Shown: positions 42,755-42,998 of the stretch, in pieces
Layout of the letters: each line of letters opens with the position of its first letter
How positions within the stretch are numbered: position 1 is the first letter of the stretch
Origin: Escherichia coli
GTDB taxonomy: Bacteria > Pseudomonadota > Gammaproteobacteria > Enterobacterales > Enterobacteriaceae
Assembly (NCBI RefSeq): GCF_003334315.1
Contig: NZ_QOWR01000001.1
Length of the DNA stretch: 64,000 nt
Direction: 5' to 3' (one strand)
Translations under genes and position numbers: made by a program
Notes under the pieces: model-generated
Database searches by the model: none
What the model was told of the DNA's origin: nothing
Seen by the model: only the letters and a program-made list of their open reading frames with translations

Positions 42755-42840
42755 TCAAATCCTCTCAATCGATATCTTCTGGCGCTTCAGTGGTAGCAAC
42801 AACTGTGCCAGAGCTTAAGAGCAACGAGGTTATCATTCAC

Positions 42841-42874
42841 TGTTTTATCAGACCGTGATTTTATCCACAAGTTC
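42841..42874 (-). promoter_or_regulatory. sigmaE-type promoter upstream of rpoH (P3-like)
   Basis: Minus strand GAACTTgtggataaaatcacggTCTGAtaaaaca matches the GGAACTT-N16-TCTGA sigmaE consensus. Confidence 0.6.
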
Positions 42875-42998
42875 AATGCAAGCTTGTGAATAAATTACGC
42901 ACAAAATGTGACATAGAGATGAAATACCGGGAAGAGACAACGGGGTCTCTTTCCCTGCTACGGAACCCATTGCAGGGAAAGAGTATAACACGCTTTTA

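Follow-up and report, generated by a model that had tools for sequence, protein, structure and literature searches.

The ftsX-rpoH locus

The window analysed here, a stretch of 64,000 nucleotides, is the ftsYEX-rpoH-livJ segment of the Escherichia coli chromosome, with the annotated gene order ftsY-ftsE-ftsX-rpoH-livJ. The gene of the heat-shock sigma factor sigma32, rpoH (284 aa), is found on the minus strand at 41900..42754, both in the list of open reading frames and in the RefSeq annotation (WP_000130217.1). Its upstream neighbour on the same strand, ftsX (42999..44057, likewise present in both sources), marks with its stop codon the edge of the regulatory region. The ftsX stop ends at 42999 and the ATG of rpoH is at 42754; positions 42755..42998 are exactly the ftsX-rpoH intergenic region, which is 244 nt long. 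A query of 351 nt over the ftsX-rpoH junction showed 100% identity to E. coli chromosomes and was found in all complete E. coli genomes (5426/5426).

The window also holds two paralogous genes for periplasmic branched-chain amino-acid binding proteins on the minus strand (38410..39573 and 40526..41686). One of them is livJ, located downstream of rpoH, and the other copy is presumably livK. A small open reading frame on the plus strand (panM) lies between livJ and the presumed livK, a gene order that is ordinary for E. coli.

A sigmaE-type motif upstream of rpoH

A first reading, made from the sequence alone, had noted the motif GAACTT-N16-TCTGA on the minus strand of this region. The strand around the motif reads ...gcatTGAACTTgtggataaaatcacggTCTGAtaaaacagtg... 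(also given as gcatTGAACTTgtggataaaatcacggTCTGAtaaaacagtgaatg), with GAACTT at 42874..42869, a spacer of 16 nt at 42868..42853 and TCTGA at 42852..42848. The motif is thus confirmed; it is located on the strand of rpoH, 94-120 nt upstream of the ATG (42754). When both strands of the 64 kb were searched with the exact pattern, this was the single match (42848..42874, minus strand). Dinucleotide shuffles put the expectation for the exact pattern at 0.02 per window, and 2 out of 100 shuffled windows contained a match.

We also used a relaxed sigmaE score, which is defined by GGAACTT, a spacer of 15-17 nt and TC[AT][AG]A. By this score the site, referred to as P3 in the following, is ranked first in the whole window. 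Note that relaxed scores of at least 10 are not rare, with about one match per shuffled 64-kb window. Since the relaxed score alone is not rare, the significance of the site is judged from the exact match and from its position and strand within the 244-nt promoter region.

The -35 element, tGAACTT (42869..42875, minus strand), agrees with the consensus GGAACTT in 6 out of 7 positions (PMC1312014). It is followed on the same strand by the spacer GTGGATAAAATCACGG (42853..42868), which has the preferred length of 16 nt (PMC1312014) and contains a DnaA box, and by the -10 element TCTGA (42848..42852), which is preceded by CGG (PMC1312014, PMC1851643). The model of Rhodius et al., which covers 28 mapped sigmaE promoters of E. 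coli, has GGAACTT as its -35 element and (T/C)GGTCAAAA as its -10 element, separated by 15-19 nt with a strong preference for 16 nt, and a discriminator of 5 or 6 nt; the distance from the -35 element to +1 is 26 or 27 nt, and transcription starts on a purine (PMC1312014). In addition, the C in the -10 element is invariant (PMC1851643). Compared with the extended -10 motif (T/C)GGTCAAAA, the sequence CGGTCTGAT (cGGTCTGAt) agrees in 6 out of 9 positions, and TCTGA agrees with the later TCAAA core in 3 out of 5, the TC and the last A being retained. A consensus of the form GAACTT-N16/17-TCtgA is still in use for AlgU, the orthologue of sigmaE (PMC10651043).

In each of the features that were tested, that is, the -35 element, the 16-nt spacer, the -10 element with its C, the orientation and position, and the conservation at orthologous loci, P3 agrees with what is expected of a sigmaE promoter. 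The older consensus GAACTT-N16-TCTGA was presumably derived in part from rpoH P3 itself, so that the match in E. coli would be partly circular.

Following the rules of the model (PMC1312014), transcription from P3 is predicted to start on the minus strand at 42841..42842, either at A42841 (with a 6-nt discriminator) or at C42842 (with a 5-nt discriminator). A42841 lies 27 nt after the -35 element, and a start at this position would give rpoH a leader of 87 nt. The start proposed in the sequence-only reading, about 7 nt past TCTGA, is this same A42841 and agrees with the predicted discriminator of 5 or 6 nt. A search of the full-text literature with 18-mers of the promoter, aimed at a printed P3 sequence or a mapped +1, gave no match, and therefore we treat the +1 at 42841 as a prediction of the model.

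Conservation of the motif

To describe conservation, we used 80 rpoH loci from Gamma- and Betaproteobacteria, with one genome per species; the sigmaE motif was counted on 77 of these. The block GGAACTTGTGGATAAAATCAC(G/T)GTCTGATAAAA is kept in Citrobacter and Enterobacter, while its flanks diverge. In both genera the -35 element is a full GGAACTT, and the -10 element is identical to that of E. coli. The block is degenerate in an Enterobacterales MAG as well as in Photorhabdus and Acerihabitans; in some Enterobacterales, namely these two genera and insect symbionts, the sigmaE motif is degenerate or absent.

Among six divergent E. coli strains, picked across the range of identity, both hexamers are invariant. 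SNPs within E. coli cluster directly upstream of the -35 element, at 42877..42880, where AGCT, GCGT, AACT and AGCC variants are found. The spacer has a single SNP, G>T at 42854 (strain WB61), and the T is the state seen in Citrobacter and Enterobacter. With megablast and a 45-nt query, an identical core was found in 4946 of the 5426 E. coli genomes; the remaining genomes (about 480) were probably missed on account of the 28-nt word limit together with the G>T SNP in the centre of the spacer, and not through loss of the promoter.

Further away, a motif of the sigmaE type (score of at least 10, at most 400 nt upstream of rpoH) was found in 27 of the 77 gamma- and betaproteobacterial loci. The same count gave 1/77 when the opposite strand of these regions was taken, and 0/77 in a downstream control. 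Across the distant loci that have the motif the spacer sequences are unrelated, which shows that what is retained are the hexamers and their spacing. This recurrence agrees with the SigE promoter of fam, the rpoH homologue of Bordetella (PMC3490749), and with the presence of RpoH among the conserved predicted targets of AlgU in pseudomonads (PMC10651043).

Other regulatory elements in the region

A motif scan of the plus strand gave a perfect DnaA box, TTATCCACA (9/9, 42861..42869), that lies in the P3 spacer and overlaps the last base of the -35 element. This putative binding site is the only 9/9 DnaA box in the 64-kb window, and it is kept in Citrobacter and Enterobacter. On the minus strand the scan gave a second, DnaA-like box, TTATTCACA (8/9, 42885..42893), in the orientation opposite to that of the perfect box, 10 nt upstream of the -35 heptamer and 15 nt from the perfect box. 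The second box is kept in Enterobacter, and one further base differs in Citrobacter. Wang and Kaguni are said to have found in 1989 that DnaA represses P3 and P4 of rpoH.

Besides P3, two candidate promoters were seen on the minus strand. The first, from a pattern search, is a sigma54-type element, TGGCAC-N5-TTGC (42796..42810), which lies in the P3 leader, some 40 nt before the ATG. The pattern has 2 matches in the window, compared with 0.31 expected, and at the level of sequence the element conforms to the sigma54 consensus; its GG and GC dinucleotides are retained in Citrobacter and Enterobacter. We assume that it is probably the sigma54-dependent promoter P6 of rpoH, which Janaszak et al. 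reportedly described in 2007. In E. coli DCE7 (locus L082) the rpoH leader has a tandem duplication of 9 nt, TTGCTACCA (~42791..42799), by which the TTGC of this element is doubled.

The second candidate is an extended -10 element of the sigma70 type, TGtTATACT (42982..42990), seen in the sequence just past the ftsX stop codon; in Citrobacter and Enterobacter it reads TATAAT. From it, transcription is predicted to start around 42975, some 220 nt before the ATG, and the element is a candidate for P1, the distal promoter that Erickson et al. reportedly described in 1987.

On the minus strand, immediately past the ftsX stop, a folding computation gave a strong hairpin, CUCUUUCCCUGC...GCAGGGAAAGAG (42947..42983, -26.7 kcal/mol, z = -4.35), which overlaps the -10 element of the candidate P1. 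In Citrobacter and Enterobacter the stem is kept and the loop varies. Since it has no T-run, the hairpin is not a canonical terminator. A generic scan for sigma70 promoters and terminators found no terminator; it also proposed TTGAGA-16-CAAAAT, which overlaps the rpoH start codon and which we judged to be spurious. The rpoH mRNA is known to carry a thermosensor. A scan of 41800..43200 with the Rfam covariance models gave no match at E<=1, that is, the thermosensor was not detected as any family.

That the region holds several promoters had been stated in the sequence-only reading, and the perfect DnaA box, the sigma54-type site, the extended -10 sigma70 site and the hairpin agree with this. 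EcoCyc lists up to six rpoH promoters, among which P1 is the source of the main transcript (PMC3562002).

Identity of the motif as rpoH P3

Taken together, we are nearly certain (probability about 0.97) that the motif is the classical P3 promoter of rpoH, through which the gene of the heat-shock sigma factor is transcribed in dependence on sigmaE (RpoE, ECF02-type). The claim of a sigmaE-type promoter upstream of rpoH is supported by the identity of the E. coli locus, by the geometry of the model and by the literature (PMC1851643, PMC3490749, PMC1312014, PMC3326320). It was through rpoH P3 that sigmaE was identified (PMC8103513, which cites Erickson and Gross 1989), and P3 has been called exclusively sigmaE-transcribed (PMC1851643). 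Its transcript has been reported (PMC8103513, PMC3490749); in vitro, P3 is transcribed by E-sigmaE and by the SigE holoenzyme of Bordetella, and in vivo an rpoHP3::lacZ fusion responds to SigE (PMC3490749). In the work of the Gross laboratory P3 serves as a reference sigmaE promoter and as a reporter (PMC1312014, PMC3326320), and it is the normalising control in assays of sigmaE promoter strength (PMC3326320). The activity of sigmaE is routinely read out with rpoHP3::lacZ. DksA and TraR are known to activate P3 (PMC9239242).

On the other hand, the basal activity of a cloned rpoH promoter fragment in vivo was high and independent of sigmaE (PMC3326320), as one would expect from overlapping sigma70 promoters; it indicates that other promoters overlap P3 and that sigmaE is not the sole input. 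Potentially, the block could be kept mainly as a control region for DnaA binding and for a sigma70 promoter (P4), with the sigmaE-like hexamers simply carried along. The only perfect DnaA box of the window does lie inside the spacer, with the 8/9 box 10 nt upstream of the -35 element, the entire spacer is conserved in Citrobacter and Enterobacter beyond the hexamers, and the sigmaE-independent activity of the cloned fragment (PMC3326320) fits as well. However, the frame GGAACTT-N16-TC..A persists in distant Gamma- and Betaproteobacteria that have neither the spacer sequence nor the DnaA box. Moreover, the two roles are not exclusive, and DnaA control on top of a sigmaE promoter accounts for both observations. 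We regard it as very improbable that the hexamers are mere passengers of DnaA and sigma70 control.

Less probable still is a chance match without any role, with rpoH driven by sigma70-type promoters only: it would fit the frequency of relaxed scores of at least 10 (about one per shuffled window) and the -10 element that has just 3 of the 5 bases of TCAAA, but we reject it in view of the rarity of the exact match, the location of the motif on the correct strand inside a 244-nt promoter region, and the conservation, both of the hexamers across enterics and of the motif type, which recurs before rpoH in 27 of the 77 distant loci (compared with 0-1 in the controls), and it is contradicted by direct biochemical and genetic evidence (PMC8103513, PMC3490749, PMC1851643) and by the rpoE-dependent transcripts already reported in the literature, which would start at about 42841.

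With the motif read as P3, the regulation of rpoH would proceed as follows. As is established, envelope stress, for example from ethanol, from extreme heat or from outer-membrane proteins that stay unassembled, leads to the degradation of the anti-sigma factor RseA, and sigmaE is freed. The holoenzyme E-sigmaE then binds tGAACTT (42875..42869) via region 4 of the sigma factor and TCTGA (42852..42848) via region 2; here the elements are seen in the sequence, and the protein contacts are taken from established knowledge. Transcription would start about 6 nt past the -10 element, at A42841, giving an rpoH mRNA with the 87-nt leader. According to the established view, more sigma32 is then made, so that cytoplasmic chaperones and proteases rise alongside the envelope response, and P3 sustains the transcription of rpoH at temperatures where sigma70 promoters fail. 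DnaA could occlude P3 via the perfect box in the spacer.

The path from envelope stress over sigmaE-driven transcription of rpoH to the cytoplasmic heat-shock regulon has been textbook knowledge since 1989. The link between envelope stress and the heat-shock factor of the cytoplasm, which the sequence-only reading had proposed, is hence the established one. The feature is already known, and nothing in our interpretation is new. What the case provides is a positive control, in which an established promoter was correctly recognised from its sequence; there is no open question that the P3 finding makes more testable.

Compared with rpoH P3 of E. coli as it is known (rpoHp3, the founding sigmaE promoter), there is no difference: the organism, the ftsX-rpoH locus, GAACTT-N16-TCTGA and the predicted start about 87 nt before the ATG are the same, and we are looking at the same object. 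For a wider comparison we name the general RpoE/AlgU (ECF02) promoters, such as those of degP, rpoE P2, micA and algD/algU of P. aeruginosa. P3 and these promoters have in common the GGAACTT -35 element, the spacer of 16 or 17 nt, a TC..A -10 element whose C is invariant, and a short discriminator (PMC1312014, PMC10651043, PMC1851643). Unlike them, P3 has a T for the first G of the -35 element and TG for AA in the -10 element; a further difference is its overlap with a DnaA box and with other promoters. The sigmaE-type rpoH promoters of other Gamma- and Betaproteobacteria, including that of Bordetella fam, share with E. coli the wiring from sigmaE to sigma32 and the frame of the motif (PMC3490749). 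In many of those lineages, however, a CIRCE (HrcA) operator encloses the -10 element or the start region, whereas E. coli has no CIRCE at this place.

CIRCE operators upstream of rpoH in related loci

For CIRCE we used the pattern TTAGCACTC-N9-GAGTGCTAA and allowed at most 3 mismatches in the arms. Of the 80 gamma- and betaproteobacterial loci, 36 have the operator in front of rpoH, at a distance of 25-150 nt (loci within L021-L081, for example L028, L049, L050, L054, L064, L070 and L075), while 213 kb of control flank gave 0 matches. A GGAACTT-like heptamer is located 15-17 nt upstream of the TC in the left CIRCE arm in 14 of the 36; by a hand estimate, about 0.14 such arrangements are expected by chance. 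The distribution of the distance between the heptamer and the TC has a sharp peak at 16. Since a sigmaE-type -35 element sits 15-17 nt before the TC of the left arm, the operator and the sigmaE -10 element appear to be fused in these 14 loci. In other loci (L060 and L063) CIRCE is found just downstream of the -10 element.

The Bordetella locus in the fused set (L075) is presumably the fam promoter that is transcribed by SigE; the paper on this promoter mentions neither CIRCE nor HrcA (PMC3490749). Earlier work on Geobacter (PMC545781, citing Permina and Gelfand 2003) already describes a CIRCE in front of rpoH, and in the literature searched we found no statement on a fusion of CIRCE with a sigmaE -10 element.

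One tentative explanation, which applies to the related loci rather than to the E. coli window, and which we think is rather less probable than its alternatives, is that the link from sigmaE to sigma32 is ancestral to Gamma- and Betaproteobacteria, and that in lineages with HrcA the sigmaE promoter of rpoH became fused to CIRCE. The left CIRCE arm may then supply the -10 element TC..A, with GGAACTT lying 15-17 nt before it. If this is true, then HrcA could veto the induction of sigma32 by envelope stress in the lineages that have it, as a sigmaE promoter of rpoH that is fused to the operator makes such a veto possible.

No CIRCE element was found in the E. coli window, and to our knowledge E. 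coli has no HrcA. The position equivalent to that of CIRCE is taken in E. coli by the DnaA boxes.
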